A stretch of DNA of 64,000 bases. It comes from an uncultured Bacteroidia bacterium (GTDB lineage Bacteria; Bacteroidota; Bacteroidia; Palsa-948). The stretch lies in assembly GCA_964481195.1 (NCBI GenBank), contig CAYZTB010000004.1, positions 24,306 to 88,305 on the forward strand, read 5' to 3'. Below, one piece after another: positions 4,379-59,430 of the stretch. Position 1 is the stretch's first letter. Each line of letters begins with the position of its first letter. Both the position numbers and the translations under genes were made by a program. The notes below the pieces were generated by a model that had not been told where the DNA came from, searched no databases, and saw only the letters and a program-made list of their open reading frames with translations.

Positions 4379-5281
4379 ATGATTAATTTGGGAGCATATA
4401 ACACGTTGGCAGTATTACGCAGAGCCGATCAGGGTTTGTATTTGGGCGATGATTCTGGAGAATCGGTGCTTTTGCCAAACCGGTATATTCCCGAAGGTGC
4501 AGATATTGGGGATACGCTGGATGTTTTCATTTATAATGACTCCGAAGACAGAATCATTGCTACCACACTTGTTCCTAAATTTACGCTCAACAAATTTGCT
4601 TGTCTGGAAGTAGTAGCCGTTTCGAGCAGCGGAGCTTTTTTGGATTGGGGCCTGGCTAAAGATATTTTTGTTCCCTTTAAAGAGCAGATGAAAAAACTGG
4701 AAGTGGGACAGTTTGTAATTGCCTTTTTGTATTTAGATACTATTACCAATAGGTTGGCGGCATCGTGTAAGACTAATAAACACTTAAATAATGAAACGCT
4801 TGATGTAAAAGAAAACGAGGAGGTCGAGCTTTTAATTATGGAGAAAACAGATTTGGGTATTAACGTTATTATTAATGATAAATACAAGGGAATTATTTAC
4901 GAAAATGAAATTTTTAAAACCCTTACTTTTGGAGATCGCACAAAAGGACACATTAAAAAAATTAGAGAAGACAATAAAATTGATGTGAGTCTGGAAAAAT
5001 TAGGCTATGCCAAAGTAGAGTCAAACGAAGAAAAGATTTTAGAAAAACTACAAGAGAACAAAGGATTTCTTCCTTTAAATGATTACAGTTCTCCCGAAGA
5101 AATTGTGGCGCTATTGGAAATGAGCAAAAAGACTTTTAAGAAAGCGATTGGCTCCTTATTCAAACAACGAAAAATTAGAATAGAGGAGAAGGGGATATAT
5201 ACCCACCCTCCCCAACCCTCCCAGGGGGAGGGGGTTGCACGCCCAAGTTCTCCCCCTTCGGGGGAGTTAGAGGTGGCTTAA
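4379..5281 (+). CDS. cvfB: CvfB/YitL S1-domain RNA-binding protein with repeat-derived C-terminal tail
   Basis: GAFLDWGLAKDIFVPFKEQ, MSKKTFKKAIGSLFK winged helix; the last ~26 aa are encoded by a palindromic repeat. Confidence 0.9.
   Translation: MINLGAYNTLAVLRRADQGLYLGDDSGESVLLPNRYIPEGADIGDTLDVFIYNDSEDRIIATTLVPKFTLNKFACLEVVAVSSSGAFLDWGLAKDIFVPFKEQMKKLEVGQFVIAFLYLDTITNRLAASCKTNKHLNNETLDVKENEEVELLIMEKTDLGINVIINDKYKGIIYENEIFKTLTFGDRTKGHIKKIREDNKIDVSLEKLGYAKVESNEEKILEKLQENKGFLPLNDYSSPEEIVALLEMSKKTFKKAIGSLFKQRKIRIEEKGIYTHPPQPSQGEGVARPSSPPSGELEVA
5202..5277. repeat. C/G-rich palindromic doublet (family C), copy 1
   Basis: Arm A CCCTCCC-AGG-GGGAGGG, ~15-nt spacer, arm B CTCCCCC-TTC-GGGGGAG-TTAGAGG; same architecture at 11481 and 58800. 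Confidence 0.85.
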
Positions 5282-6478
5282 TCTCCCCGCAATAAAACCC
5301 GTTGTCCATGCTGCTTGAAAGTTAAAGCCGCCAGTTACAGCATCAACATTAAGCACCTCACCTGCAAAATACATGTCTGGGCATTTTTTGCTCTCCATCG
5401 TTTCAAAGTTCACATCATCTAGTGAAATTCCCCCGCAAGTAACAAACTCTTCTTTGAAAGTTGTTTTGCCTTCAGCGCTATAACAATCGTTCACGAGGGT
5501 ATTAATTAATTTATTCAGACTTTTTTTAGGAAGTTGGTTCCAGGTAGTTTCAGAAACAATTTCATTTTTCTCCAGCAGATATAACCACAATCTATTAGGT
5601 AACAGAAAAGGATTTTTGTTTCCTATTTGTCGTTTGCCTATTATTTTTAACTCTGTTTCCAGCTGTGCTCTAATTTCTTGTTCGGTATTATTTCCTAGCC
5701 AGTTTACTAGAATTTCAAATTTATAATTCATGGCTTGCAGCTCTCTGGCTCCCCAAGAGGATAGTTTTAAAATTGCAGGCCCACTCATTCCCCAATGTGT
5801 AATCAACAACGGACCTTCGCTAGAAAGTTTTGTGCCCTTCACTTTTACGGATACCGATTCAGCAACTACGCCCATAAGTTTTGTTATGCTTTCTGTTGGC
5901 ATGTTAAACGTAAAAAGCGATGGTACGGGCGAAACAATTTGATGTCCGAGTTCTTTTAGCCAGTTAAATCCTTCCGGCTTTGGGCTTCCTCCGCTGGCAA
6001 TAATAATTTTGTCGGCAACAATTTCGTTGCTACCCACCGAAAGGATAAATCCTTTGCCCTTCTTGGAGATTTTAGAAATAGCAGTTCCTCTTTTTATAAC
6101 AACGCCAAGCTTATCAGCCTCTTTTGTCAGACAATCAATGATGGTTTGCGAATTATCCGTTACGGGAAACATGCGATTATCTTTTTCTGTTTTAAGCTTT
6201 ACGCCTCTGGCTTCAAACCAATGAACAGTATCGTTTGCGTTAAACTGCGTAAAAGCTTTTTTAAGTTGCCTACCGCCACGAGGGTAAAATTTGGCAAGCT
6301 GAGAGTTTTCAAAACAGGCGTGCGAAACATTACATCGGCCACCACCGGATACGCTCACTTTAGCAAGTAGCTTGTCGGATTTTTCAAGTATCGTAACGTC
6401 AAAATCAGGGTGATGATGCTTGCAAGATAATGCAGCAAAAAACCCGGCAGCTCCTCCTCCTATAACTAGTACTTTCAT
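5267..6478 (-). CDS. NAD(P)/FAD-dependent oxidoreductase, HI0933/YhiN (BaiN) family
   Basis: GGGAAG, VSGGGRCNV, LLITHWGMSGPA, GGFNFQAAWTTG. Confidence 0.92.
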   Translation of the reverse strand: MKVLVIGGGAAGFFAALSCKHHHPDFDVTILEKSDKLLAKVSVSGGGRCNVSHACFENSQLAKFYPRGGRQLKKAFTQFNANDTVHWFEARGVKLKTEKDNRMFPVTDNSQTIIDCLTKEADKLGVVIKRGTAISKISKKGKGFILSVGSNEIVADKIIIASGGSPKPEGFNWLKELGHQIVSPVPSLFTFNMPTESITKLMGVVAESVSVKVKGTKLSSEGPLLITHWGMSGPAILKLSSWGARELQAMNYKFEILVNWLGNNTEQEIRAQLETELKIIGKRQIGNKNPFLLPNRLWLYLLEKNEIVSETTWNQLPKKSLNKLINTLVNDCYSAEGKTTFKEEFVTCGGISLDDVNFETMESKKCPDMYFAGEVLNVDAVTGGFNFQAAWTTGFIAGRLSHL

Positions 6479-6520
6479 CTTTATTTAGTCCTACCTTTAC
6501 AAAACAAAAGTATTGTTTTA

Positions 6521-8482
6521 ATGTCACTAAACAAGATTAGATTTCCTGCCTATGTTAGATTTTTTTTCTTCATGTATTTGTGGGGCATGTTGTTTTTTAT
6601 GCTTTTCAGACTGCTGTTATTAGCTTTAAACATTTCAAGTGGCGTAATAAGCTTTTCGGATTTATCGCTTTTGCCTATTTCTTTTGTTTATGGTTTTAGA
6701 TTTGATACCAGCGTTTCATGCTATATCCTTGCCTTGCCTTTTATAATTTCTTCTTTAGGCTTTTTCTTTAAGCCAATTAGAAAAATATTTTTTCATTTTT
6801 CGTTTTACCTGTTGCTTGCATTTTATTTTGCTGCGTATTTTATTTGTTGTGCAGATATTCCCTATTTCATGCAGTTTTCTTCTAGGCTCAGCACCGCAGC
6901 ATTTTTATGGATTGGAACACCCGGCTTTGTTATTAAGATGATAGTAGGCACCTTTTCCTATTGGATATTTTTTGTGCTATTCGTTTTGGTTTGCTTCCGT
7001 TTTTATCAAGTAGCAGCTAGGGAGAAGAAAAAAGTAGTTACTGATTTTGAAAGTCATACACAATTATTTTTCTTGAAGTCTTTGTTGTTTCTTATTTTGT
7101 TTGCCCCCATTTTATTTTTAGGGATGCGTGGTCGCATAGCCGAAAAATCTCCGATGGTAACGGGCACCGCTTATTTCAGCGAAAATAATTTTTTAAATCA
7201 ACTGGGACTGAATGGAGCGTTTACATTCATTTCCAGTGCGGCCGAAGATTTAGAGAATGGGAATCAGCACATGAGCTTGATGGATGATGAAATGGCTGTA
7301 GAGAACGCAAGAAAATATTTAAAGATTGACTCAGAATATGATTCCCCAATTGCAAGAAAGGTAGTTGCTGCCGGAAAAGAAAAAAAGATGAATGTGGTGC
7401 TTGTCATTATGGAGGGCATGAGCAGCTTTAACATGGGAAAGTATGGAGGCAGGGATACGGTTACTCCTGTTTTAACCGCACTTAGCAAAAAGGGTTTGTA
7501 TTTTGAAAATATTTTTTCACAAGGCATTCATACGTTCAATGGAATTTATTCTTCGCTATTTTCTTATCCTTCCCTGTTGCACAAACACAGCATGCGAAAC
7601 ATTCCTGCTAAACAATATTATTCCATGCCTCTGGTGCTGAAGAAAAACAATTACGAAACCCGTTTTTTCATTACGCACGATGGGCAGTTTGATAATGCAC
7701 AAGGTTTTTTAACTGCAAATGGATTTGATAGAGTTTATGCAGAAAGCGATTATCCTAAGGGAAAAGTACTGAGCACGTTGGGCGTTCCCGATGATTATTT
7801 GTTTGATTTTTCTATTTCCAAGCTAAATGAAATAGCAGCAACTGGGAAAAACTTTTTTGCAGGATACATGACGGGCAGCAATCATAATCCAATTATTATT
7901 CCGGATTGGGTAACAGAAAAATTTAGCTCTGGCGAAGACCATATTCGAATTATTCAGTATTCAGATTGGGCCATTGGCGAGTTTTTAAAAAATTGCTCTA
8001 AGCAAGATTGGTACAACAACACGATTTTTGTTTTTGTTTCCGATCATGGTGCAAACTGGCTGCACACTTACGACATGCCCTTGGGCTTCCATCATGTGCC
8101 CTTAATTATGTATGCTCCTGGATTGCAGCTCGAACCAAAATCAATTTATAACCCGGGTGGACAACTTGATATTTTTCCAACAGTAATGGGGCTGATGAAT
8201 ATGTCCTATCTAAATAGCACCATGGGCATTGATCTATTAAAAGAAGAAAGACCTTACATTTATTTTACAGCGGGTAATAAAATTGGATGCCTTGATAAGG
8301 AATATTATTTTATTCATAGAAAGGACGGAGGAGAAAGTTTATATAAATACGAAGCCTTAGACCCTACCAACTTATTGGAAAAATTTCCTGCCAAAGCTGA
8401 TAGCATGCGCAACTATGCGTTTTCTATGTTGCAAGCAACACAATGGTTGGTGGAGCACCAAAAGTTTAAGAAGCAAGATTAA
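6521..8482 (+). CDS. LTA synthase family / sulfatase-fold membrane protein
   Basis: N-terminal TM helices; NVVLVIMEG, QGIHTFNG, FVSDHG. Confidence 0.88.
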   Translation: MSLNKIRFPAYVRFFFFMYLWGMLFFMLFRLLLLALNISSGVISFSDLSLLPISFVYGFRFDTSVSCYILALPFIISSLGFFFKPIRKIFFHFSFYLLLAFYFAAYFICCADIPYFMQFSSRLSTAAFLWIGTPGFVIKMIVGTFSYWIFFVLFVLVCFRFYQVAAREKKKVVTDFESHTQLFFLKSLLFLILFAPILFLGMRGRIAEKSPMVTGTAYFSENNFLNQLGLNGAFTFISSAAEDLENGNQHMSLMDDEMAVENARKYLKIDSEYDSPIARKVVAAGKEKKMNVVLVIMEGMSSFNMGKYGGRDTVTPVLTALSKKGLYFENIFSQGIHTFNGIYSSLFSYPSLLHKHSMRNIPAKQYYSMPLVLKKNNYETRFFITHDGQFDNAQGFLTANGFDRVYAESDYPKGKVLSTLGVPDDYLFDFSISKLNEIAATGKNFFAGYMTGSNHNPIIIPDWVTEKFSSGEDHIRIIQYSDWAIGEFLKNCSKQDWYNNTIFVFVSDHGANWLHTYDMPLGFHHVPLIMYAPGLQLEPKSIYNPGGQLDIFPTVMGLMNMSYLNSTMGIDLLKEERPYIYFTAGNKIGCLDKEYYFIHRKDGGESLYKYEALDPTNLLEKFPAKADSMRNYAFSMLQATQWLVEHQKFKKQD

Positions 8483-9297: not shown

Positions 9298-9330
9298 GAT
9301 AAAATAATATTGCACAAATCTAAAACAATC

Positions 9331-10730
9331 CTAATACTCCTTGCAAACAATTGTTTTTACACCATAATATTGGGCCTGGCAGGTATTTATCCAACTGGCA
9401 GAGTCTTTACTTAGGTCCAGTACAAATAATGATTTTGGCTTATTGCTTAATGGGGTCAATACTAGATCCAGTCCTTTATTCTCAAGCTTGGACAGCACTT
9501 CGTTTCGAATATTTATTTCCTTCTCAAAATTTTGTACGCGACCATACCAAATATCTTCTAGCACATCATATCCATTATTGGTAGTTAGCAGTGAGCCAAT
9601 AATTAAAACTAGCACAAGCATTTGAACTTTTTTTGCTTTAAATGAATCAATATTTATTTTTTCAATATAGGTTGATGCATACATGCCAATGCTTATAAGC
9701 CAGTACAGCATAAAGAAAAAGCAAGCAACATTGTTCTATGCTGACCTAATATATTGGTTGCCCAGTAAGGAGGGAAGATGCATACGAATAATATTATAAA
9801 ATGAAAAAATGCAACCAGCCAAGGATTTAGAAGCAAGTCATTTTTTAATATTGAAAAACTTTTTTTATTGGCAGATAAAATTCGCACAAATAAGAAAGTA
9901 GAAAATAGCAAAGGCAAGGAAGAGATCCAGTCAAACCCAAAGCGTGCTATTTGCAACAAACTTTGAATCAGGGAATGAAAAAAATTGTGATTATCTGGAT
10001 AAGCAGCAGTCCGAAAGCTATTTCCCGGAGCGAGTAACATAAGCAATGAAAAAGAAAGACAGGTGGCCAGAATTAAATACCAGGAGCCAGCTAATTTTTT
10101 ATTTTGATGCAACGACAAATATAAAATCATGCCGTGTATTATAATCAATAAGAAAGTAACTACTTCGCTGAATCCAAGCGTAAGAATCAGTATAACAAGT
10201 AGGAGCAGCAAATGAAACCCTTTGTGAAATAGATATTTCATTTTGTAGTAATCAATTAATAAACCTAAGTATAAAAGGCAAAACGATATTCCAGTTTGAT
10301 AATTGACTGCGGCCGTAAAAAAATAAAAACCTTCTGCTAAGGTTGGTATTTGATTTAAGTAGATCAATACAAAAAACAGACTGATGTTCATCGAATCTAT
10401 TCGTGATAAAGCGTATTCGCTAAGCGCTCTAAAAAAATAATAAACAGAAAAAATAGTTAACGCAATTTGAAAAATAGGGATGAGTGTATATAATTCAGTA
10501 TATGAAAATGCAATTGGGTTTAATAATATAAGTGCGTTGGTAGCATAGCGACCACCCATGCCCATAAATAATCCCAGGTAATTATCTGTAAAAGAATTTG
10601 CAGCGATTAAGTTTGAAAAACAATAATCATCAGCAACGGGCTGCGCAAACTGCGCAATATAGATGTATGGAGAAATTGCAGCTAGCAATGCCAGAAGCAA
10701 CAAGTATTTTAGATAAGCGGATTTCTCCAA
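9331..10730 (-). pseudogene. DUF6056-like GT-C-type membrane protein split by a frameshift near 9725-9735
   Basis: ORFs 9693..10730 and 9331..9711 overlap; N-terminal PVADDYCF and GGRY; a frame change restores HRT-NVACFFFMLYW continuity. Confidence 0.7.
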
Positions 10731-10737
10731 GCGAAAA

Positions 10738-12831
10738 TTATAAAATGTTGTTTAGCAATTGCTCATCCACTAAATTGGGCAGGGTAACTTTCAATTTTTT
10801 GCTTCGTTTCATTTCACGCTCTATGGCAAAAATAGCTTCTTTGTTACGCGCCCAACCTCTGCGAGCAATACCGTTATTTACATCCCAGAAAAGCATGGAT
10901 TTTAATCTGCGATCTGCATCTTTGCTGCCGTCCAGCACCATACCAAATCCACCATTTATTACTTCGCCCCAGCCAACACCCCCTCCGTTGTGCAGCGATA
11001 TCCAAGTAGCCCCGCGAAATCCATCGCCAACAAAATTCTGAACAGCCATGTCGGCAGTGAACTGAGAGCCATCATAAATATTGGATGTTTCCCGATATGG
11101 AGAATCTGTTCCCGATACATCGTGATGATCGCGCCCCAGCACAACCGGAGCAGATATTTTTTTTGCTTTGATCGCCTTGTTAAATGCTTCGGCAATTTTT
11201 ATTCTTCCTTCCGCATCGGCATACAAAATACGCGCTTGCGATCCAACAACCATTTTATTTTTCTGCGCTTCTTTTATCCAATGAATATTATCGGCTAGCT
11301 GTTGTTTTATTTCCTTGGGAGCTTTCTTGTAAATCCCTTCCAGCATCTTTGCGGCAATTTTATCTGTTACTTCTAAGTCTTTAGGATTTGCAGAGGTACA
11401 CACCCATCGAAAAGGACCAAAGCCATAGTCGAAACACATCGGCCCCATAATATCTTGAACGTAAGAAGGGTAGCGGAACACCCCACTCCCCGCTCTCCCC
11501 GAAGGGGAGAGAGTCGGAGTACTATCTTCTCCCCCTTTGGGGGAGATAAGAGAGGGGGTGTGGCTGTAAACATCCGCTCCAGCTCTTCCTGCCTCGAGCA
11601 AAAACGCATTTCCATAATCGAAAAAATACATGCCCTGTGCTGTAAGTTTATTTACGGCATTTACATGACGCACGAGCGTTTTTTGAACTTCTACTTTAAA
11701 CTGTGCAGGGTTTTCTGCCATCATTTTGTTTGCTTCATCAAAAGAAATCCCTACGGGATAATAACCTCCTGAATATGGATTGTGAAGAGAAGTTTGATCA
11801 GAACCCATTTCAACTTTTACGTTTTCAGCAGCAAACTTTTCCCATAGATCTACAATGTTGCCTTGATAAGCTAGCGACACCGCTTCTTTTTTATTTCTTG
11901 CAATTTCAATTCTTGCTATAAGCGTATCCAAATCTGAAAAAACTTCGTTCACCCATCCCTGCGAATGTCGTGTATATGTTGCTTTGGGATTTATTTCTGC
12001 AATCACAGCGATTGCACCTGCAATTACTCCTGCTTTGGGCTGCGCTCCACTCATGCCGCCCAGTCCTGAAGAAACAAAAAGAAGCCTCTCCCCAGCCCTC
12101 CCCGTTGGAGAGGGAGTATTTGCCCGATACATACGTGAAGCATTCAAAAGGGTGATGGTTGTGCCGTGCACTATTCCTTGCGGACCAATGTACATGAAGG
12201 ACCCAGCAGTCATTTGTCCGTATTGAGTTACACCCAGTGCATTGTATTTTTCCCAATCATCCTGCTTGGAATAATTTGGAATCATCATGCCATTGGTAAC
12301 AACTACGCGAGGCGCATCTTTATGTGATGGAAACAATCCTAACGGATGGCCAGAATACATTACAAGCGTTTGCTCATTCGTCATCGTTGCCAAATAGTTC
12401 ATGGTAAGCAAGTACTGCGCCCAGTTTTGAAAAACTGCTCCGTTGCCACCGTAGGTTATTAGCTCGTGCGGGTGTTGCGCCACAGCATAATCCAAGTTGT
12501 TGGACAGCATGTGCATGATGGCGCCTGCTTGCTTGGACTTATAGGGATATTCTGAAATTGGTCTGGCAAAAATTTTATAATCCGGACGAAAGCGGTACAT
12601 GTAAATACGTCCGTACGTTTTTAGTTCATCAGCAAATTCTTTAGCAAGCGTAGCATGAAACTTTTTTTGAAAATATCGCAGCGCATTTTTAATAGCCAAC
12701 TTTTTTTCATCGGTCGATAAAATATCTTTTCGCTTAGGTGCGTGATTGAGCGAGCGATCAAATTCTTTTACAGCAGGCAATTTATCCGGAATGCCTTTCA
12801 AAATCTCTTTTTGAAATTCTTTTTTTGTCAT
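10738..12831 (-). CDS. hutU: Urocanate hydratase (long form) with two repeat-derived insertions
   Basis: GQMTAGSFMYIGPQGIVHGT, GLGGMSGAQPKA, GRDHHDVSGTDSPYRET, HNGGGVGWG. Confidence 0.97.
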   Translation of the reverse strand: MTKKEFQKEILKGIPDKLPAVKEFDRSLNHAPKRKDILSTDEKKLAIKNALRYFQKKFHATLAKEFADELKTYGRIYMYRFRPDYKIFARPISEYPYKSKQAGAIMHMLSNNLDYAVAQHPHELITYGGNGAVFQNWAQYLLTMNYLATMTNEQTLVMYSGHPLGLFPSHKDAPRVVVTNGMMIPNYSKQDDWEKYNALGVTQYGQMTAGSFMYIGPQGIVHGTTITLLNASRMYRANTPSPTGRAGERLLFVSSGLGGMSGAQPKAGVIAGAIAVIAEINPKATYTRHSQGWVNEVFSDLDTLIARIEIARNKKEAVSLAYQGNIVDLWEKFAAENVKVEMGSDQTSLHNPYSGGYYPVGISFDEANKMMAENPAQFKVEVQKTLVRHVNAVNKLTAQGMYFFDYGNAFLLEAGRAGADVYSHTPSLISPKGGEDSTPTLSPSGRAGSGVFRYPSYVQDIMGPMCFDYGFGPFRWVCTSANPKDLEVTDKIAAKMLEGIYKKAPKEIKQQLADNIHWIKEAQKNKMVVGSQARILYADAEGRIKIAEAFNKAIKAKKISAPVVLGRDHHDVSGTDSPYRETSNIYDGSQFTADMAVQNFVGDGFRGATWISLHNGGGVGWGEVINGGFGMVLDGSKDADRRLKSMLFWDVNNGIARRGWARNKEAIFAIEREMKRSKKLKVTLPNLVDEQLLNNIL
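11481..11558. repeat. Family C palindromic doublet, in-frame inside hutU
   Basis: CTCTCCCC-GAA-GGGGAGAG, spacer, CTCCCCC-TTT-GGGGGAG-ATAAGAGAGG; encodes PSLISPKGGEDSTPTLSPSGRAGSG. Confidence 0.85.
12084..12116. repeat. Family C single arm inside hutU
   Basis: GCCTCTCCCCAGCCCTCCCCGTTGGAGAGGGAG; encodes TPSPTGRAGERL. Confidence 0.75.
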
Positions 12832-14246
12832 TTGGTTTTTTGATATAGATGAAACCGAGTGGTGGGAATATTTATTTTTTTTAGTTGTATAGAATCGGAC
12901 GCCTGCGTGCCAGTCTCTAGCACTACAAATTCATTGTCCGTAGTTATTTTATTGTCTATGCAAATATAATAATGCCGAATTAAATATTCTTGAAACGACC
13001 ATTGACTCCATAAATCATACGAGGCACCAACCACAGAGCCCCTCGGCACTATTTTCCCAATCAGATGAACATCTTCGATTGCAGTCTTGTCACGACTAAA
13101 GCCACCGGTGTGCATCGTTGATATAAGTAGTACAGAAATGAGCAAAAAAGGTGCGATTGTTCTAAAAATTGTGAATCCAATGGAGTGGATATTAATCTTC
13201 TCCACTAATAAGGAAAGAATGGGTGCTGTAATTATAGCTGCAACCAAAGCGAAGTAGGGCAGGGAGGTGGCCAAGTAAAATCCCCTTTGCTCAAGTGTTA
13301 TCATTAATGGGAAGGAAGCGGCAATGCCAATTAGTAAAAAGAACAAAGAGTTTTTCCACATCGCGGCAGAAATCGATGCCGGTATTTTTTTTTGCCGAGC
13401 GGCAAGAATCACGATAAGAGCGAATAGTATCATCGGCAGTAACTCCGATACCAATCTACCCAAAAGATAAAACCTTCCGTCACCATTATCTACGTGCTGA
13501 ATGCTATTCAACACACGGTTGTGTAGATAGGCACTTAGGCTTTCGTAGGCAGAATCATTTTGAAGGAGTAGAATTAATAGTATAGACGGAATCAGAATTA
13601 AGAGCATCGTGTTGGCCAACATTTTTTTTGCTGAAATATTTTTGTAGCAGATCCACCAGGCAAAAACAACAGCTAAGGGAAACAAGCCTTGTATCCCCTT
13701 GGTAAGCCCGGCCAACAAAATAAAAATTCCTGCCCCTGCCAGCATAAGATAGGAATTGGATTTTAGAAATCGAATAGTAAGCAGCACAGCGATCAGGTCA
13801 AATACCGACATGGTATTTTCCATCACGTTGTTTGAAAAAGCCCAAAAACAAACAGGCACCGTAATCCATAAGATGATAGGCAGCCAAGCCAATCCTTTTT
13901 TTTCAGCATCATTCTCAAAAACGCTTCGCCACATCAATACAATTAAAACTGCATTTAGAATGGCAGTAAGAAAGGAATACCCCCTCTCCACATAAATACC
14001 ATTCCCGAATGCAGAAAAGAAGAGGGCCTGAATTCCAAAACCTAACGGAGGCTGCTGATCAAAAAAAGAATGCAGCGTTTTGCTGAAGTGCGGAAACCAA
14101 AATGTTCCAATACCTTCGGATAGGTTTTTTGCCACAGATGCATAGAGCAGTCCGTCCATAAACATTCCATCCTCAAACAGCGTGGGGAGGATGAGTGCGC
14201 AGAGCAGCGCAAGGGTAAGTATCCAAAAGGGAAGGTGTTTTTGCAT
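12828..14246 (-). CDS. ArnT/PMT-like (GT39/83) membrane glycosyltransferase
   Basis: DGMFMDGLLYASVAKNL, FDQQPPL, multiple TM helices, LTKGIQGLFP. Confidence 0.85.
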   Translation of the reverse strand: MQKHLPFWILTLALLCALILPTLFEDGMFMDGLLYASVAKNLSEGIGTFWFPHFSKTLHSFFDQQPPLGFGIQALFFSAFGNGIYVERGYSFLTAILNAVLIVLMWRSVFENDAEKKGLAWLPIILWITVPVCFWAFSNNVMENTMSVFDLIAVLLTIRFLKSNSYLMLAGAGIFILLAGLTKGIQGLFPLAVVFAWWICYKNISAKKMLANTMLLILIPSILLILLLQNDSAYESLSAYLHNRVLNSIQHVDNGDGRFYLLGRLVSELLPMILFALIVILAARQKKIPASISAAMWKNSLFFLLIGIAASFPLMITLEQRGFYLATSLPYFALVAAIITAPILSLLVEKINIHSIGFTIFRTIAPFLLISVLLISTMHTGGFSRDKTAIEDVHLIGKIVPRGSVVGASYDLWSQWSFQEYLIRHYYICIDNKITTDNEFVVLETGTQASDSIQLKKINIPTTRFHLYQKTK

Positions 14247-14255
14247 GATGAAAAA

Positions 14256-15404
<1,149 letters not shown>

Positions 15405-15483
15405 GAGAGGCGATTAACAGCTTTGTGTTTATAAGCTATTAATTTGCATAAGGAATTTATTATCTGTCTGATTATTTTTACGT

Positions 15484-16464: not shown

Positions 16465-16644
16465 CTTCGACAAGCTCAGTCAACGGGGAGTTTTTTGTGT
16501 CCGAGTAATTTCTGGTAGTTGAGCAGTTTCTGATGATTGAGCTGCTCCAGTGGTTGAGCAGTACCTGGTAGTTGAGCTGCTCCGGTGGTTGAGCAGTACC
16601 TGGTGGTTGAGCAGTACCTGGTGGTTGAGCTTGTCGAAACCACC
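16459..16644. repeat. Family B inverted REP pair enclosing a 7-unit 17/18-bp tandem array
   Basis: CGTTGAC-TTCGACAAGCTCA-GTCAACG at 16459-16485; TTGAGC cores at 16519, 16537, 16554, 16572, 16589, 16607, 16625; terminal GGTGGTT-GAGCTTGTCGA-AACCACC. Confidence 0.9.
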
Positions 16645-16654
16645 GTTAATAAGA

Positions 16655-16948
16655 ATGAAAGGCTGGATGTATATTTTAGAATGTTCTGATGGTAGCTATT
16701 ACACAGGCAGCACCAATAATTTGGAATATCGTTTTCAACAGCATCAAAATGGAGAGGGTGCTAACCATACTAAAAAGCACTTACCTGTGAAACTTGTGTA
16801 CTATGAGGAATATCCAAGAGTAGATCAAGCATTTTATCGCGAGAAACAGGTGCAGGGCTGGAGTCGAAAAAAGAAAGAAGCAATGATTCATAGCAAGCCG
16901 GAGATATTGCCCGAACTATCTAAAAACTACACTCAATTTCCACAATAA
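16655..16948 (+). CDS. Stand-alone GIY-YIG nuclease (UPF0213/YhbQ-like)
   Basis: MKGWMYILECSDGSYYTGST, RFQQH, AFYREKQVQGWSRKKKEA; the track's upstream extension is translated repeat. Confidence 0.9.
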   Translation: MKGWMYILECSDGSYYTGSTNNLEYRFQQHQNGEGANHTKKHLPVKLVYYEEYPRVDQAFYREKQVQGWSRKKKEAMIHSKPEILPELSKNYTQFPQ

Positions 16949-16959
16949 ATTTATTGATT

Positions 16960-17106
16960 CGGCAACTGGCAAGCGCTAAAGCAGACCCCGATGTTGGGTA
17001 TAGGTTAAGCCTCTGTCAGATTTAGAAGGACAGCTAAGCTGCCAGAAAATAATCGAGCGATGGTTACCCTTCGCTCAACGGGAGCCAACCTGTTGCTATA
17101 GGCAAC
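16960..17106. other. Possible attC-like recombination site
   Basis: Outer CGGCAAC...GTTGCTA ends ~140 bp apart, GC-richer than the flanks, abuts the TPR gene stop; internal symmetry is weak. Confidence 0.35.
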
Positions 17107-17109
17107 TAA

Positions 17110-17955: not shown

Positions 17956-18303
17956 TTAGCCCAACTCAGCCAATATTTTCTCAATGGATATCTTCAAGCG
18001 AGGAATATCGGCATACACAACATTCCACACTTGTTTACTGGAGATGCCGAAATATTCATGAGCAATAACGTTTCGGAAAGCTTTAATTCTGTACCATTCT
18101 ACATCTAGATATTTTGCTTTGAGCTCATCTGAAAGTACATTAACTGCCTCGCCAATTATTTCCATTTGCCGCTCCACCGCAGACTGCACCAGAATATTGG
18201 AGCAATAGGCACTCTCATCCATTCCTTTTGTAAATAACAGAATGTGATTCATGGCATCTTGAACGTGAAGCAGGCGTTGCTTATCTCCAAGCGAATTTTT
18301 CAT
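17956..18303 (-). CDS. hepT: HepT/DUF86 HEPN ribonuclease toxin
   Basis: AVERQMEIIGEA and RNVIAHEY (Rx4H plus Tyr). Confidence 0.9.
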   Translation of the reverse strand: MKNSLGDKQRLLHVQDAMNHILLFTKGMDESAYCSNILVQSAVERQMEIIGEAVNVLSDELKAKYLDVEWYRIKAFRNVIAHEYFGISSKQVWNVVYADIPRLKISIEKILAELG

Positions 18304-18593
18304 CAGGGTCTTTCGAAAAGAAGAACTTTGCTTTTATCGACAAATGGACGGATATATTTTGATATTCCATCTTCTGAAACCAAATCAATCTTTTTCCCAA
18401 TAATTTTTTCAAGGTCTAGCTTCCAGCCTATAAAATCGAGTAAACTCACTTTTTTTTGTGTATAATCTACATCTACTAGCAAATCAATATCACTCTGTTC
18501 TGTTTGCTTGTTTTGAGCGTAGGAGCCAAATACATAGACACTTCTGACAGGAAGATTTTGAAAATAATCTTTTATAATCTGTAGGTTATTCAT
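18303..18593 (-). CDS. mntA: MNT minimal nucleotidyltransferase antitoxin
   Basis: VFGSYAQNKQTEQSDIDLLVD; 1-nt overlap with hepT; -7 element (TATCTTTG on minus) at 18601-18608. Confidence 0.9.
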   Translation of the reverse strand: MNNLQIIKDYFQNLPVRSVYVFGSYAQNKQTEQSDIDLLVDVDYTQKKVSLLDFIGWKLDLEKIIGKKIDLVSEDGISKYIRPFVDKSKVLLFERP

Positions 18594-19950: not shown

Positions 19951-20017
19951 TTCAACAAATTTAGCTTTTTCTCTAAAGGGTAAAGAGGGGGCTTTCAATT
20001 AAAACGGCATTCGATTT

Positions 20018-20100
20018 TTCAACACAGAGAGCACAGAGTTTACTGAGATTCACAGAGAAACTCTGTGTTACTCTGTTTGCTTCGCGAACTCTGTGTTAAA
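20018..20100. mobile_element. Gene-less family A (CACAGAG) inward-facing doublet, MITE-like
   Basis: TTCAACACAGAGAGCACAGAG...GAGATTCACAGAG-AAA-CTCTGTGTTACTC...CTCTGTGTTAAA; arms match the flanks of GxxExxY at 62495/62914. Confidence 0.7.
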
Positions 20101-20217
20101 GATTTTATTATTCGTATTAAAATACGTTTAATAGCAAACAATAACATTCAAGCTAAAACTCTTTCAATAGCTCTTAATAAATTATATCTTTGCGCCACAA
20201 TCTTAAATATAAAAATT

Positions 20218-20703: not shown

Positions 20704-20834
20704 CCTTTGTGAACTTTGTGGGCTGATTCTTTGTGTTCTTTGCGGTTTCTGCCTTTTTAACAGCCGAAACCACAAAGAGAATCATGTAAATACACGCTCC
20801 AAAGGAGTCCCTTCGGGGCAAAGAACATAGAGGA
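20704..20834. repeat. Family A' (CACAAAG) outward-facing doublet with a nested family D element (20796-20819)
   Basis: Reverse-complement similarity to 28964-29070 (TTTGTGGGCTG, TTTGYGGTTTCTG, CAGCCGAAACCACAAAG); GCTCCAAAGGAGTCCCTTCGGGGC interrupts a CAC^AAAG unit. Confidence 0.8.
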
Positions 20835-28588: not shown

Positions 28589-28972
28589 ATGCTGACAGAA
28601 AATCAACTATCAAATAAAATAATCGGACTTGCGATGCAAGTTCACACCACACTGGGTCCGGGCCTGCTCGAAAGCGCATATAAGGAGTGCATGCAATACA
28701 AAATAAAAAAAGCGGGTCTATGCGTAGAAAAGGAAAAAGCCATGCCACTCATTTTTGAAGAAATAAAGCTGGAATGCGCATACCGCATGGACCTGCTCGT
28801 AGAAAGTAAGGTAGTAATAGAGATCAAGAGTGTAGAGGCGTTGAATGATGTACACCTAGCGCAAACACTCACCTACATGAAACTTGGGAGTTATAAACTA
28901 GGGTTACTGATCAATTTTAATGTTGCACATCTAAGAAATGGAATAAAACGTGTTATAAACGGCACTTTGTGA
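28589..28972 (+). CDS. GxxExxY protein (PD-(D/E)XK nuclease superfamily), copy 1
   Basis: [41 protein letters not shown]. Confidence 0.93.
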   Translation: MLTENQLSNKIIGLAMQVHTTLGPGLLESAYKECMQYKIKKAGLCVEKEKAMPLIFEEIKLECAYRMDLLVESKVVIEIKSVEALNDVHLAQTLTYMKLGSYKLGLLINFNVAHLRNGIKRVINGTL

Positions 28973-29070: not shown

Positions 29071-29171
29071 AATATAAAAGAAAAACAAACAACAACAACC
29101 GCCCCTTCCCTAAAAGGGCGAAACAAATAAAACAAACGCTTCATGCAGGGATGAGGCAAAAAAACAAAAAC

Positions 29172-29195
29172 CCACCTACGCTGAAGCTACGGTGG
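29172..29195. repeat. Short REP-like hairpin (family E) just upstream of ssb
   Basis: CCACC-TACGCTGAAGCTAC-GGTGG; single copy in the window. Confidence 0.5.
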
Positions 29196-29210
29196 ATAAA
29201 ACAAAACAAC

Positions 29211-29543
29211 ATGAGAAACAAAGTAACATTGATCGGAAACCTCGGACAAAATCCTGAAGTGAAAGAACTTGATGGAGGAAAAAAATTTGCAAAATTCTCC
29301 CTCGCAACCAACGAAACCTATCACAATAAAGCGGGCGAAAAAATAACGGACACCCAATGGCATAACCTGACCGTGTGGGGTAAAACAGCCGATATCGTTG
29401 AGAAATATCTTAAGAAAGGCAGCGAAGTGGCCGTTGAAGGAAAACTGCTCAACCGCAACTACACGGATAAAGAAGGCGTGAAGCGCTACATTACCGAAGT
29501 ACAAGTGAGCGAGCTTGTGATGCTTGGAGGAAAGAAGGACTAA
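29211..29543 (+). CDS. ssb: Single-stranded DNA-binding protein (short form)
   Basis: MRNKVTLIGNLGQNPE, FSLATNE, TQWHNL, KGSEVAVEGKL. Confidence 0.95.
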   Translation: MRNKVTLIGNLGQNPEVKELDGGKKFAKFSLATNETYHNKAGEKITDTQWHNLTVWGKTADIVEKYLKKGSEVAVEGKLLNRNYTDKEGVKRYITEVQVSELVMLGGKKD

Positions 29544-47366: not shown

Positions 47367-47423
47367 TTTACTTGCCTAGTGTTGCGCAAATACTAATATT
47401 TGCACTGCGAAGTTATTAAAAGA

Positions 47424-48107: not shown

Positions 48108-48146
48108 TCGTTACAATTTTCCCATCTTTGCATAATAACAAATGCT

Positions 48147-48629: not shown

Positions 48630-48638
48630 ATTTATTGA

Positions 48639-52249: not shown

Positions 52250-52349
52250 ATATAATAATGAAGTATAAAGATAGAAAAAGAAAAAACAAGCTGTGTTTTA
52301 GCTGTCATAGCGAGAAATAATTTTATTTTTGTGCCTTAATAATTTATCT

Positions 52350-52868: not shown

Positions 52869-52880
52869 TAATAGCGTAGG

Positions 52881-56331: not shown

Positions 56332-56365
56332 GTTTCTTTTATAAGGATACCTGAAAAATCATGCA

Positions 56366-57167: not shown

Positions 57168-57275
57168 TAATAAATAACGAGCAATAATTTTTGAACGAAA
57201 AGGTATTCTCTTTATTGCTTCATATATAACTCGAAAAGTAACATATTTGTGGTATTTCTTACATATAGAAAAATC

Positions 57276-57440
57276 CTAAATATCAGGTTTCATTAATGAC
57301 CGAAACTGGTTAAATACTCGTTCCAAGACCGATAGTTGTTCTGTTACTATATCCGCCATTCCGCCCATTTCAGGTTTATATTCAATTTGCTTCTTATAGC
57401 TTGTTAGTAGGCCTTGCGATAAAATAACCTCAACTCTATA
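57276..57440 (-). pseudogene. C-terminal relic of an HlyD-type secretion adaptor
   Basis: 54-codon start-less frame YRVEVILSQGLLTSYKKQIEYKPEMGGMADIVTEQLSVLERVFNQFRSLMKPDI*. Confidence 0.7.
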
Positions 57441-57441
57441 A

Positions 57442-59430
57442 TTATTTTTTGTTTGCTAATTGTTTTAGCTCTTCCAGTTCAGCCTCATTTACAAACCCAC
57501 CTTTTTCTTTTGCGGTAAGCATATCCTGTAATGCCTCGTTAAATTTCCCTAAACTTTTATACGAAAGTGCACGGTTGGCATAAGCGCTAACATTATCGGG
57601 CTTCAGCTCCAATGATTTACTAAAGCTTATTACAGACTCTTCATATTTACCACTCATGCTTAAAATGATTCCTCGGTTGTTATAGGCTTGTCCGTTTTCG
57701 GGAGCAAATTCAATTGTTTTATTTATATCTGCCAAGGCTTTGTTTAGCTTACCGCTTTTTCCATACGCTTCGGAGCGAGCATAAAAGCCTTCGCCACTTT
57801 GAGGGTTAATATTTATTATTTCAGAAAAATCTTTTATGGCACTTTCAAAATAATTTTTTTCTACATAAATAGTACCCCTGCTTAAGTAGTTCAGATAATC
57901 TGTTGGAACTTGGTTTATGGCTTTAGTGAAAGAATTAATGGCATCGTCTTTCTTTTTCAGCCGCACTTCGATAAGTCCTTTGTTTCTCCAGGCATTGGGA
58001 TAGCGTGGTTTTAATTTCACTAATGCAATAAAATCTTGCAGCGCTTCTTCGTTACGCGAGGAATCGGATAGCACAGCTCCGCGGTTGGTATAAAGGATAG
58101 CGGCTTGATGTCCGTTATTTATGGCATCAGTATAAAGCGTGATGCTATCGTGCCATACTTTGTTTCTATTAAATGAAGAGTAAGCTAAAAGCAGCAAGCA
58201 AACACCGGCTCCTGATAACACCATTTTATTTTTTAATAAAGGAGTTATGTAATAGGCGACAATAAAAAATAATCCTATAGAAGGCAGGTAGGTGTATCGA
58301 TCGGCATACAAGGCATCGCCAACAGGTAAAAGTTGTAACACCAGCGCGATAGTTATTATAAAAAATGCTGCACCAAACAAAACAAATTTCGATTCTTTAA
58401 AATATTTCCAGATGATAAATGCAAGTGCTAACAACACGGCCGGGCTTAAATAAACCCAGATGGTATTTATTTTATCATCGGTTTCGGGATAGGGGTAGAA
58501 GCAGCTAAGATTTATTGGTAAAATAATTTTATGCAGGTAGGTCATGAGTGCATAACAAGAAAATAATAGTCGTTCGTACAATGGAAAGTATTGAAACGTT
58601 TGCATGGCACCTGCTTTGCCTTGCACATTGATGGCCAGCACACCAAAAGCAATAGCCAATAAAAAGAAAGGAACTTTTTCTAAAATAGTTTGCTTGTTTA
58701 TTTTTCTGCCCAACAAAAAATCCACAGCAAAGAAAACTAAGGGCAACACCACTGCTTGTGCTTTGGAGAGAAGAGCGAGGGTGAAGAGGAAGAGAAGAAG
58801 CCCCACCCTTGCCCTCCCCATAAGGGAGGGAAATAGTGCGACAGTTCCTCCCCTAGCGGGGGAGGTAAGTAGAGAGCCCGATATATACAAATACAAACTC
58901 CACAAAAAGAAAAATCCGTACAACACATCTTTGCGTTCGGATATCCAGGCAACGGATTCTACATGCAACGGATGAATACCAAATAGGAGGGAGGTGAGGA
59001 AAGCTACTAAGAGCGCATTGCTTTTGAAGAGAAAGGATCCAATTTTTTGTATTATCAAAAAAACAAAAAGCGTATTCAGTAAATGTAAAACCAGGTTTGT
59101 TAAATGATATCCAAATGGATTTAGTTCCCAGATTTTATATTCCAGCATATAACTTAACATAGTAAGCGGCTGATAATTACCCACAAACTGTTCCGAGAAA
59201 ATTAGTTTGATGTTAACTACATTTAAAGTGTGAACTGCCGGATTGTTAATGAGGTATTGGGGATCATCCAGGTTAACGAATTTATTTTGTAAGGAAGGCA
59301 AGAAAACTAAAAAGGTAATGGCTAAGATTATAGGTAAAAAGTATTTTTTATACTTTGAAAAAACACCTTCTGCAGGAATTTTATTCGAAGTAGCGGCTTT
59401 AATTTTCGGAGCAGGCTTTGCCATCCTCAA
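57442..59430 (-). CDS. TMTC-like GT-C membrane protein with TPRs and an in-frame repeat insertion
   Basis: NLDDPQY, NYQPLT, HPLHVESVAWISERKDVL, LLSKAQAV, ADRYTYLP, TPR tail. Confidence 0.88.
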   Translation of the reverse strand: MRMAKPAPKIKAATSNKIPAEGVFSKYKKYFLPIILAITFLVFLPSLQNKFVNLDDPQYLINNPAVHTLNVVNIKLIFSEQFVGNYQPLTMLSYMLEYKIWELNPFGYHLTNLVLHLLNTLFVFLIIQKIGSFLFKSNALLVAFLTSLLFGIHPLHVESVAWISERKDVLYGFFFLWSLYLYISGSLLTSPARGGTVALFPSLMGRARVGLLLFLFTLALLSKAQAVVLPLVFFAVDFLLGRKINKQTILEKVPFFLLAIAFGVLAINVQGKAGAMQTFQYFPLYERLLFSCYALMTYLHKIILPINLSCFYPYPETDDKINTIWVYLSPAVLLALAFIIWKYFKESKFVLFGAAFFIITIALVLQLLPVGDALYADRYTYLPSIGLFFIVAYYITPLLKNKMVLSGAGVCLLLLAYSSFNRNKVWHDSITLYTDAINNGHQAAILYTNRGAVLSDSSRNEEALQDFIALVKLKPRYPNAWRNKGLIEVRLKKKDDAINSFTKAINQVPTDYLNYLSRGTIYVEKNYFESAIKDFSEIININPQSGEGFYARSEAYGKSGKLNKALADINKTIEFAPENGQAYNNRGIILSMSGKYEESVISFSKSLELKPDNVSAYANRALSYKSLGKFNEALQDMLTAKEKGGFVNEAELEELKQLANKK
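58800..58878. repeat. Family C palindromic doublet, in-frame inside the TMTC-like gene
   Basis: CCCTCCC-CATAA-GGGAGGG, spacer, CCTCCCC-TAGC-GGGGGAGG; encodes GSLLTSPARGGTVALFPSLMGRARVG. Confidence 0.85.

Follow-up and report, generated by a model that had tools for sequence, protein, structure and literature searches.

A GC-rich hairpin repeat of BoxC/PIT/TM-like architecture read in frame within genes of an uncultured Bacteroidia bacterium

The window, the whole 64,000-nucleotide stretch of DNA analyzed here, carries a GC-rich hairpin repeat found in frame within four ordinary genes or at their ends. The six loci concerned are probably copies of one short repeat family defined by its structure, a judgement that we make jointly for the explanation as a whole. 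Comparison with orthologues supports a dispersed palindromic element through which the host frame continues, as it does in Rickettsia, and the architecture of the element points to the BoxC/PIT/TM repeats as the closest known family.

Results

One unit consists of a C-rich tail, a C-rich arm, a loop of 3–5 nt and a G-rich arm, and measures about 33–37 nt. In a doublet, two units stand head to head with a spacer of about 15 nt between them. The host is an AT-rich uncultured Bacteroidia bacterium, and the repeat a short GC-rich hairpin. The window contains three doublets of about 80 bp and three single units, two of them decayed. The features discussed below are as follows.

4373-5281, + strand: cvfB, with its final codons and stop replaced by doublet 1
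5203-5281, + strand: doublet 1
5267-6478, − strand: HI0933-like oxidoreductase gene, with its final three codons and stop replaced by doublet 1
10738-12831, − strand: hutU, host of doublet 2 and of the single unit at 12084
11481-11565, + strand: doublet 2, inside hutU at site B
12084-12118, + strand: single unit, inside hutU at site A
14463-15404, + strand: gene of a PLP-dependent enzyme, D-cysteine desulfhydrase/ACC deaminase-like, host of two decayed units
14736-14790, + strand: decayed single unit, internal to the PLP enzyme gene
15383-15412, + strand: decayed single unit, at the 3' end of the PLP enzyme gene
57442-59430, − strand: gene of a membrane protein with C-terminal TPR repeats
58800-58878, + strand: doublet 3, inside the TPR membrane protein gene
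62524-62958: PDDEXK_3 nuclease gene, adjoining or within a CACAGAG-family repeat

The window was scanned for two exact hairpin patterns, with 100 shuffles as the control. CTCCCC-N3-8-GGGGAG matched 4 times and CCTCCC-N3-8-GGGAGG 3 times, against an expectation of 0.00. A less stringent scan looked for the three blocks of the unit as a pyrimidine tail and arm, a loop and a purine arm. It returned 7 units, every one within the six loci, whereas 20 block-shuffled windows together gave 1; its cut-offs missed the hairpin at 58847 and the copy at 15383, and it found no further copies in the window, intergenic or otherwise. All six loci listed by an earlier sequence-only reading are present at the places it gave, and the repeat is non-random. 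The three doublets are strong copies and the unit at 12084 is a good one. The decayed units at 14736 and 15383, with 10–11 mismatches in 24 positions to the TMECO consensus (see below), lie at the edge of random, and are taken as real copies because a relative, L208, has intact units at the orthologous positions. Predicted hairpin stabilities range from −31 to −50 kcal/mol; one of the three doublets folded better than its own shuffles (the fold z of doublet 2 was −4.1), and Rfam returned zero matches for the hairpin elements.

Four copies lie inside genes and keep the frame: two in HutU, one in the PLP enzyme and one in the TPR membrane protein. The other two form 3' ends, one for cvfB together with the oxidoreductase gene and one for the PLP enzyme gene. 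Every internal copy keeps the frame of its host, lacks a stop codon and has a net length divisible by three. Host genes lie on the + strand for three copies and on the − strand for the other three, so that the repeat does keep or end the frame and is read from either strand, as had been proposed. Long ORFs cover about 91% of the window, and the probability that six of six copies overlap coding sequence under random placement is about 0.57, indicating that coding sequence is not avoided and that a preference for it is not demonstrated. In close relatives (about 188 kb), nearly all units fall within ORFs of more than 250 aa. In orthologue alignments all six copies are extra sequence; wherever the window has a copy, orthologues that lack the repeat are shorter, and the test put forward earlier, that of equally long repeat-free orthologues, therefore does not refute the insertions. 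The copies are located in loops, inter-domain linkers and termini, and old copies decay through point mutation, as ordinary coding sequence does. We also considered whether the sequence of the element serves to keep every one of the six frames open, and rejected this: the doublets are open in 2–4 of six, no better than composition-matched shuffles.

Doublet 1 is made of a C-tail with hairpin CCCTCCC/GGGAGGG, the spacer GGTTGCACGCCCAAGTT, and hairpin CTCCCCC/GGGGGAG with a purine tail. In addition to the ends of both genes it takes the whole convergent intergenic spacer between cvfB and the oxidoreductase gene, where the relative L207 has a 42-bp AT-rich spacer instead. CvfB orthologues end in GIYLNK at 276–278 aa, and window CvfB runs on with THPPQPSQGEGVARPSSPPSGELEVA before its stop; the oxidoreductase ends in AGRLSHL in the window and in AGKLKTY or AGKLNKN in relatives. 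The spacer GGTTGCACGCCCAA, and with it the subfamily, is common to window cvfB and to site B of L208 hutU.

The unit at 14736 encodes a 15-residue segment of the PLP enzyme. A second small hairpin (about 14754–14777) is nested in its loop, and the nested motif recurs at about 20798–20816. At this site L208 has the intact unit GCCCCACCCCAACCCTCCACGTTGGGGAGGGAG, and L004 and L006 have none. The unit at 15383 has a new stop codon in its loop, and the original stop context GATTAACAG persists just downstream; the enzyme of L004 ends in QGKLH, and the L208 gene has an intact 33-nt unit, through which the frame continues as far as the original stop. Doublet 3 encodes LLTSPARGGTVALFPSLMGRARVG at about residues 186–211 of the TPR membrane protein, earlier described as TMTC-like, whose relatives are labelled PMT_2/O-mannosyltransferase. 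The position is a loop between hydrophobic segments: orthologues of 640–642 aa read YILHTKQEKQFSKYFLFSL there, and many others have inserts of 8–28 aa in other frames.

HutU has two occupied sites. Site A, directly preceding the GLGGMSGAQ motif, carries TPSPTGRAGERL (about residues 240–250) where insert-free orthologues read GRKISKGKTDLAGKV; orthologous copies are present in L208 and, in decayed form, in L207. Site B, at the junction of the Rossmann-like and C-terminal domains, carries SHTPSLISPKGGEDSTPTLSPSGRAGSGV (about residues 423–450) where insert-free orthologues read GADILKPDGKFKY; here doublet 2 brings a net gain of 72 nt, with 15 nt of native loop lost relative to L207. Among 121 HutU orthologues, 46 have inserts at site A and 53 at site B, 28 at each site bearing the TM-type peptide signature, and the inserts represent several frames, orientations and subfamilies. 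Parsimony requires 20–26 changes, near the shuffled mean of 25, and the AU test at site B rejects a single clade (delta lnL 852, p 1.6e-66). Insert-bearing HutU alleles do not form one clade. Site B is occupied by single units of three junction and frame classes and, in either orientation, by doublets that belong to two subfamilies. The two sites are filled together above chance (odds ratio 4.5, p 0.0018), as expected if repeat activity differs between genomes. In filled alleles 12–21 nt of the native loop are gone, and no target-site duplication was seen. Other, unrelated hairpin repeats also occupy these loops in relatives. Since the AlphaFold model of HutU is poor (mean pLDDT 62), surface exposure of the inserts is read from alignment gaps against solved urocanases.

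Outside the window, the right half TTCTCCCCCTTTGGGGGAGATAAGAGAGGGGGTG is identical in window hutU and in a dihydroorotase-like gene of L048, and L006 hutU differs in the last base only. Across related genomes the same loops carry copies that differ in frame, subfamily and orientation. The search pattern for doublets is matched in many phyla, often by loci of the same build; of 120 loci fetched, 25 agree exactly with the published TMECO consensus. In other Bacteroidota, in-frame doublets were found in ORFs named from their translations: ArgRS-like and dihydroorotase-like (MAG nzgw126), LeuRS-like (a Mucilaginibacter MAG), sensor kinase-like, and the linker of an ORF reading like a fused xanthine-dehydrogenase-type enzyme (Flavobacteriales MAGs). 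The doublet also occurs in isolate genomes of Mucilaginibacter and Flavobacterium micromati. In viral contigs the element is rare, with 6 matches in 2.9 million.

Pfam scans of the 45 window ORFs found no transposase, bearing out the expectation that the mobiliser does not lie in this window. The small nucleases of the window, a GIY-YIG and two PDDEXK_3 proteins, lie beside or within other repeats, in the case of the GIY-YIG nuclease a tandem repeat. No presence/absence polymorphism was found in contigs from other samples. That the repeat is active, or recently was, as had been proposed, is shown for the clade by the turnover among relatives and not for this strain, in which several copies are old and decaying. 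Because no mobiliser, no empty/filled polymorphism within the population and no transposition intermediate was seen, the case for mobility is a comparative one.

Discussion

Judged from its architecture, the repeat is closest to the BoxC/PIT/TM (triplex motif) family, described in E. coli and further bacteria, and not to the Rickettsia palindromic elements (RPEs). It shares with BoxC, PIT and TMECO elements the order of C-rich block, loop, complementary G-rich block, short loop and second G-rich block (mirrored if read on the opposite strand), the G/C-rich islands with frequent inverted pairs of two unit types, and a dispersed distribution in many copies, variable between close relatives, without an associated transposase. 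The likeness to potential triplexes is one of sequence build. TMECO, with the consensus CCCTCNCCC-N3-6-GGGNGAGGG-N3-GGGNGAGGG, forms inverted A+B pairs and has no associated transposase (Holder et al. 2015, PMC4666352); PIT (potential intrastrand triplex) repeats are credited there to Hoyne and Maher (2000/2002). The stems in the window are 7–8 bp, whereas those of TMECO are 9 bp, and window units other than the decayed copies differ from the consensus at 4–7 of 24 positions (9 in one half), with zero exact matches. Each of the six window loci overlaps coding sequence, and in close relatives almost every copy is intragenic; in E. coli K-12, by contrast, all 23 of 23 TMECO copies are intergenic (PMC4666352).

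The repeat had earlier been called RPE-like. RPE-1 is about 100–150 bp long and belongs to the Rickettsiales. The label is apt for behavior, since both are dispersed palindromic repeats that lie in frame in genes of functional proteins and add peptide segments, as cited for R. conorii in PMC3733652. It fails as a family assignment: the architecture is that of BoxC/PIT/TM, and the window repeat shares no sequence, length class or lineage with RPEs, RPE-1 being a longer palindromic insertion. REPs tagged with GTAG or CGTC (Di Nocera et al. 2013, PMC3733652) and REPINs (Bertels and Rainey 2011, PMC3116915) resemble the repeat in their hairpin units of 20–40 bp, single or in head-to-head dimers, some of them in ORFs; some intragenic REPs encode 20–30 extra residues, and intragenic copies have been interpreted as occupying tolerant linkers and termini (PMC3733652). 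Unlike REPs, window units lack either tetranucleotide next to the stem and have a third block, the tail, and there is no RAYT in the window. The small dispersed repeats (SDR) of Nostoc and the GC clusters and double-hairpin elements of fungal mitochondria are likewise very small, hairpin-forming and apparently mobile, and in AT-rich genomes some of them enter coding sequence; to our knowledge no enzyme is assigned to them. They belong to other lineages and have other sequences, and the likeness is one of description.

Selfish, non-autonomous DNA that selection has filtered to tolerant loops, linkers and termini is probably the best account of these sequences. A possible but less favored account is one ancient insertion per site, with the filled allele spread by homologous recombination or a homing-like process and by repeated ectopic conversion from other genomic copies; it implies zero repeated de novo insertions. 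The filled HutU alleles that were examined as DNA all share a near-identical right junction (G-tail, 0–4 nt, TTY CGN TAY) and the loss of native PDGK or DLGGKV codons, and residues in the flanks, as far as about 8 codons from the insert, co-vary with it (S415G, I421V, L422F/Y, K453R), as a co-conversion tract would; on these features such a history fits about as well as repeated insertion. A palindromic element can be converted either way round, and this would account for the copies in the window and in L006 being oppositely oriented. However, single units at site B have three left junctions and frames (L005, L215, L216), site A of the distant relative L128 keeps an ancestral RKISK flank absent from other filled alleles, the co-varying residues are also present in some empty alleles, and the element has no associated homing nuclease. 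We regard as rather unlikely a REP/REPIN-type element inserted single-stranded at the replication fork by a RAYT (an HUH Y1 transposase) whose gene would lie in another part of the genome. The inverted doublet with its variable spacer, the lack of target-site duplication and the documented intragenic REPs (PMC3733652) would suit it, as would the orientation of single units in the syntenic hutU–PALP region, which follow one chromosomal direction regardless of host strand in 6/6 cases in the window (p 0.03), or 9/9 (p 0.004) if the relatives' junction classes are separate events. Yet no consistent GTAG or CGTC tag adjoins the stem, no Y1 transposase is encoded in the window, a transposase has not been found for the E. 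coli BoxC/TM elements either (PMC4666352), and HUH insertion does not predict the replacement of native nucleotides.

Functional modules under selection, acting as flexible linkers, as structural switches in mRNA or DNA, or as a bidirectional cvfB/oxidoreductase terminator, are improbable. Inserts recur at the same loops across many lineages, the hairpins are stable, and doublet 1 fills the entire spacer of two convergent genes; but it lacks a T-run and is not called by a terminator scan, and PIT elements showed neither promoter nor terminator activity in E. coli (PMC4666352). The fold and Rfam results are likewise unfavorable, orthologous copies decay freely (L207 at site A and the PALP sites; window units 14736 and 15383), many relatives lack the inserts, and unrelated hairpin repeats fill the same loops. 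The GC-cluster-derived byp elements of yeast mitochondria are a precedent for bypass, and GC-rich hairpin inserts within AT-rich coding sequence recall them. Removal from the mRNA or bypass by the ribosome is nevertheless very improbable here: bypassing would not impose the open, in-frame, stop-free state of every internal copy, under which even decayed copies continue to evolve. An assembly artefact, with repeats wrongly joined into genes, is scarcely credible. The window does come from a metagenome assembly and Logan contigs break within the element, but an identical HutU protein occurs on 6 contigs, of which the three listed come from JGI and ENA assemblies; about 9 independent runs, all of DNA, contain the stretch; the frame is kept in every case; and an in-frame doublet of this kind recurs in the Mucilaginibacter MAG, the doublet itself being present in the isolate genomes too.

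Under the favored account of selfish, non-autonomous DNA, the repeat would have spread by copying to new sites, some of them in genes, within this Bacteroidia lineage. The lack of target-site duplication, the replacement of 12–21 native nucleotides and the lack of a nearby transposase argue for spread without a classical DDE cut-and-paste transposase, more likely via a hairpin or single-stranded DNA form. Candidate routes would be an HUH-type enzyme acting in trans or, alternatively, exchange between copies by template switching or ectopic gene conversion; the palindromic build would let either work in both orientations. Copies landing elsewhere in genes would have been purged by selection, so that the surviving copies may mark tolerant sites, and the inserted peptides, predicted to be rich in Pro, Ser, Gly, Arg and Glu, would be passive surface loops.

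Six GC-rich hairpin repeats overlap coding sequence

Six loci stand out as G/C-rich islands (56-69% G+C) in the window, which has a G+C of ~37%. Each is made of one or two copies of a short three-block hairpin repeat, here called the unit; in a doublet (~80 bp), two units lie head to head around a spacer. All six overlap coding sequence.

Loci of the element in the window
5203-5281: doublet, at the ends of cvfB and of the convergent gene for an HI0933-like oxidoreductase
11481-11565: doublet, in hutU (site B)
12084-12118: single unit, in hutU (site A)
14736-14790: single unit, decayed, inside the gene for a PLP-dependent enzyme
15383-15412: single unit, decayed, at the 3' end of the same PLP-dependent enzyme gene
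58800-58878: doublet, in the gene for a TPR-repeat membrane protein

Pattern scans of the window returned four matches to CTCCCC-N3-8-GGGGAG and three to CCTCCC-N3-8-GGGAGG, with 0.00 expected for each. A looser full-unit scan found seven units, every one within the six named loci, and no extra copy in the window, intergenic or other; the same scan of 20 block-shuffled windows gave one match in total (~0.05 per shuffled window). The sequence-only reading had described an element like the Rickettsia palindromic elements (RPEs), in frame inside proteins at these six loci, and its list proved accurate and complete for the window. A preference for insertion into coding sequence is unsupported, because a 6/6 overlap has a probability of ~0.57 at the window's coding density of 91%.

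A HutU identical at every residue to that of the window is found on a 69.8-kb JGI contig (sample 3300020213), with further copies on JGI and ENA contigs, and the sequencing runs containing the stretch are labelled as microbial mat metagenome. Among named relatives, 'Bacteroidia bacterium' MAGs are the closest.

Architecture and predicted folding

Read from its C-rich side, the unit (33-37 nt) consists of a pyrimidine tail, (A)GCCYCNCCC, followed after 2-3 nt by a pyrimidine arm, CCCTCYCC, a 3-5 nt loop and the complementary purine arm, GGRGAGGG. In the doublets, a long-tailed unit is followed by a spacer of ~15 nt and by an inverted second unit, CTCCCC(C)-N4-5-GGGGGAG, which ends in a purine tail. 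All three window doublets thus pair two different unit types and, because the two units are inverted, each doublet as a whole is an imperfect palindrome. Folding predictions give stable hairpins, at -31 to -50 kcal/mol, although among the doublets the one in hutU alone is clearly more stable than shuffles of itself (z -4.1). We rejected a design open in all six frames, since the elements are no more open than their composition predicts, and also a canonical intrinsic terminator at 5203-5281, where a terminator scan made no call and there is no T-run. No Rfam match was found in the window.

Comparison with orthologues shows insertions at all six loci

The repeats had been proposed to be insertions. 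Alignment with orthologues shows that this holds at all six loci: at none of them did repeat-free orthologues have equally long segments.

HutU (10738-12831, minus strand, 697 aa) aligned end to end with urocanase 6uek, a solved structure of 681 residues, apart from additional residues at ~237-250 and 424-450. Its modal length among the 120 closest orthologues is 668 aa, and in these 668-aa forms both loops are short, reading GRKISKGKTDLAGKV (site A) and GADILKPDGKFKY (site B), where the window protein has RANTPSPTGRAGERLL and VYSHTPSLISPKGGEDSTPTLSPSGRAGSGVFRY, respectively. The AlphaFold model of HutU is too poor (mean pLDDT 62) for surface mapping of the inserts. The TPR-repeat membrane protein (57442-59430), which the sequence-only reading had called TMTC-like, carries ~17-20 extra residues in one loop, at which orthologues of 640-642 aa read YILHTKQEKQFSKYF.

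Compared with its orthologues at L004 and L006, two loci of relatives, the PLP-dependent enzyme (14463-15404) gains 15 residues and a longer C-terminus. At another such locus, L208, the enzyme gene contains intact 33-nt units at exactly both window insert positions, indicating that the two weak window copies are decayed units. In the C-terminal copy a new stop lies in the loop, and the original stop context persists just downstream. The loop of the internal copy encloses a further small hairpin, whose motif, AAAGGAGTCYCTTCGGG (14754-14777), lies in the translated frame and occurs again in an intergenic repeat region at 20796-20819.

CvfB orthologues end in GIYLNK* at 276-278 aa, and the window protein reads on through the whole doublet, gaining 26 residues. 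The other end of the same doublet supplies the last three codons and the stop of the convergent oxidoreductase gene. At L207, the locus of the closest syntenic relative, a 42-bp AT-rich spacer takes the place of this doublet.

Inserts recur and turn over at the two HutU loops

Among 121 HutU sequences, inserts longer than the native loop were present in 46 at site A and 53 at site B, and a peptide signature of the element family in 28 at each site. On a HutU tree from an alignment with the insert columns removed, 20-26 changes of insert status were required, near the shuffled mean of 25, and an AU test rejected a single clade of site-B carriers (delta lnL 852, p 1.6e-66). The empty alleles cannot be secondary losses, as they keep native PDGK codons that are absent from every filled allele. 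Five different states were found at site B at the DNA level.

States of HutU site B in the window and at loci of relatives
Window: doublet, in one orientation
L006: doublet of the same subfamily as in the window, in the opposite orientation
L208: doublet of another subfamily, whose spacer, GGTTGCACGCCCAA, is that of the window cvfB copy
L005, L215, L216: single units, with three different left junctions and reading frames
L207: no insert

At site A, the copy is orthologous in the window, L207 and L208, and visibly decaying in L207; other relatives have a unit in another register. Sites A and B are jointly filled above chance (odds ratio 4.5, p 0.0018), as expected if the family is active in some genomes. 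No presence/absence polymorphism was seen in hutU among contigs from four runs, which are fragmented pieces.

The L208 site-B doublet contains a further insert of ~30 nt, ACAACTGAAGGTTAGGAGCGAAGCTCGA, in frame inside its second hairpin (~11300-11340 of that locus), a nested insertion. Unrelated repeat-like peptides (KSKIKNQK, RSEIRNPKSEI, DRVSNPVR, DRFSKPVRS) occupy the same two loops in other orthologues (P0009, P0012, P0039, P0056-58, P0065-67, P0082 and P0118). At site A they often match the net length of the GC-rich units, suggesting that the HutU loops accept several kinds of small repeat.

Distribution in relatives and in other phyla

In 188 kb comprising the window and nine loci of relatives, nearly all units lay inside ORFs of >250 aa; L208 has six units in 13 kb. 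Doublets were also found in frame in ORFs whose names we read from the translations rather than from domain scans: ArgRS-like and dihydroorotase-like ORFs of MAG nzgw126, a LeuRS-like ORF of a Mucilaginibacter MAG, a sensor kinase-like ORF, and the linker of an ORF resembling a fused xanthine-dehydrogenase-type enzyme in two Flavobacteriales MAGs. In a doublet-pattern scan of one genome per species, the matches listed include Geobacter, Gallionella, Burkholderiales, Omnitrophota, Chloroflexota, Acidobacteriota, Armatimonadota, Methylomirabilota, Caulobacteraceae, Firmicutes, Mucilaginibacter, Flavobacterium and others, and many of those listed share the build of tail, hairpin, spacer, hairpin and tail; isolate genomes of Mucilaginibacter and Flavobacterium micromati are among the carriers. 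A metagenome scan with HutU retrieved relatives at only 69-78% identity, from which the element is nearly absent. The viral contig collection gave only six matches; the element is thus rare in viral contigs, and we rejected carriage by phage. More distant Bacteroidota hutU loci (L182, L190, L201 and L202) each contain several copies of another hairpin family, gccaCCCCTCC-NNN-GGAGGGGaatt.

Relation to known repeat families

BoxC, PIT and triplex-motif repeats have been known since the 1990s. To our knowledge, neither a function nor a mechanism of spread has been established for them. The E. coli triplex motif, TMECO, has the consensus CCCTCNCCC-N3-6-GGGNGAGGG-N3-GGGNGAGGG, with 3610 copies in 262 proteobacterial genomes (Holder et al. 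2015, PMC4666352). It is highly variable between strains, lacks an associated transposase and shows neither promoter nor terminator activity; its intrastrand triplex forms in vitro, and in vivo footprints gave no support for it (PMC4666352). Inverted TMECO pairs always combine two unit types, all five E. coli pairs being type A plus type B (PMC4666352).

No exact match to strict TMECO was found in the window. The best window units differ from it at 4-7 of 24 specified positions, compared with at least 9 (mode 14) for random 55-nt windows, and their stems are shorter; 25 of 120 fetched doublet loci match the consensus exactly. Seven window units have the three-block build of the broad triplex-motif class (pyrimidine arm, complementary purine arm and an adjacent third block, homopurine or homopyrimidine, with short loops), and all three doublets are inverted pairs of two unit types, as in that class. 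In E. coli K-12, 23 of 23 TMECO copies are intergenic (PMC4666352), whereas all six window loci overlap coding sequence. Judged by sequence, the window element is of the same kind as BoxC/PIT/TMECO, as a diverged variant whose location in the genome is opposite to that in E. coli.

REP/REPIN elements have a GTAG or CGTC tag beside the palindrome; the window units have no consistent tag, and a pyrimidine or purine tail flanks their stems instead. In-frame palindromic repeats were already known as Rickettsia RPEs and as intragenic GTAG/CGTC REPs (PMC3733652). The element shares with RPEs its in-frame behaviour, a likeness of behaviour rather than of compared sequences; RPEs belong to Rickettsiales, whereas the host here is a Bacteroidia MAG and the unit is 33-37 nt. 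Our literature searches, which covered journals outside subscription, found no report of an in-frame repeat of this kind in Bacteroidota.

Nucleases and other repeats in the window

Among 45 scanned window ORFs there was no transposase and no RAYT (Y1 HUH transposase), in agreement with the earlier statement that the mobiliser is not in the window. The small nuclease genes of the window (GIY-YIG and PDDEXK_3) adjoin or sit within other repeats, not the GC-rich hairpin element. One PDDEXK_3 gene (62524-62958), between an sdhC-like gene (62964-63647) and a putative sdhA ORF (60503-62482), goes with a second dispersed family rich in CACAGAG/CTCTGTG (20002-20105, 59531-59586, 60437-60507 and 62907-62955), copies of which flank sdhB (59657-60400) and abut the nuclease gene. 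From this arrangement, the gene and its repeats look like a small nuclease-plus-repeat cassette inserted in the succinate dehydrogenase operon. The GIY-YIG ORF (16550-16948) has its start and upstream region in an 18/35-nt tandem repeat (16485-16637). A second PDDEXK_3 (PD-(D/E)XK) gene (28589-28972) lies directly upstream of ssb (29151-29543), and adjacent genes for a HepT-like RNase and a nucleotidyltransferase (MNT) at 17956-18593 resemble a toxin-antitoxin pair.

A DUF6056/GT_STM0557_N gene (9331-10730) is split into overlapping ORFs (9693-10730 and 9331-9711), also in other assemblies of the window strain; at L207 it is one gene of 464 aa (12034-13428). Recoding may explain the split, or a frameshift may have left the gene a pseudogene.

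Junctions, orientation and mode of spread

Filled alleles at both HutU sites lack 12-21 nt of the native loop. The net gain is +15 nt at site A, and at site B +18 or +21 nt for single units and +63 to +72 nt for doublets; the C-terminal copy in the L208 PLP enzyme is an apparently clean 33-nt gain. Comparison of filled and empty alleles showed no target-site duplication, with flanks diverged by 15-25%, in which a duplication of 2-3 nt could be hidden. At the right junction of site B, the purine tail is always followed by 0-4 nt and TTY CGN TAY, and residues up to about eight codons away co-vary with insert status. In the syntenic region from hutU to the PLP-enzyme gene, single units have the C-rich tail first on the window plus strand, regardless of the strand of the host gene. 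Orientation was the same in 6/6 cases in the window (p 0.03), and in 9/9 (p 0.004) if the junction classes of relatives count as separate events. The bias is relative to the chromosome and not to transcription, and may be a replication-strand bias.

Loss of native nucleotides with no duplication seen, together with these junction and orientation features, argues against a MITE derived from a DDE transposon, which would have terminal inverted repeats and a target-site duplication. The same features fit a mechanism of spread that depends on single strands or hairpins. They fit equally a history in which each site received one insertion, which then spread by recombination while copies converted one another. 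A bolder proposal, which we consider improbable, is that three-block repeats of the BoxC/triplex-motif type are transposase-free mobile DNA whose own hairpins or single strands would let it spread, with template switching or conversion taking place at replication forks. Such spread would account for nucleotides being replaced rather than duplicated, for repeated hits at the same sites, for co-converted flanks and for the shared orientation of single units. If it were true, this Bacteroidia lineage, with nearly all of its repeats lying inside conserved genes, would be the first system in which each event could be reconstructed at base level against an orthologous empty site.

Discussion

The in-frame, RPE-like phenomenon is real, with extra sequence relative to orthologues at six confirmed loci. 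Its sequence features identify the cause as a diverged member of the BoxC/PIT/triplex-motif kind, lying mostly inside genes in this lineage. Most likely the element is selfish DNA, filtered by selection to tolerant loops, linkers and termini.

Strictly intergenic in the E. coli picture, this kind of element is here a routine passenger in housekeeping enzymes, both in a Bacteroidia lineage and elsewhere among Bacteroidota. The Rickettsia RPE phenomenon thus has a second, phylogenetically unrelated example, found in a free-living bacterium. The inserts matter for gene annotation and for the alignment of orthologues in Bacteroidota MAGs, because they make annotated proteins longer or shorter and introduce new stop codons. 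They also serve as a natural map of where proteins can accommodate 7-30 additional residues. Since the coding flanks are conserved, insertion junctions, replaced nucleotides and orientation can be read, and the question of how these repeats move becomes testable.
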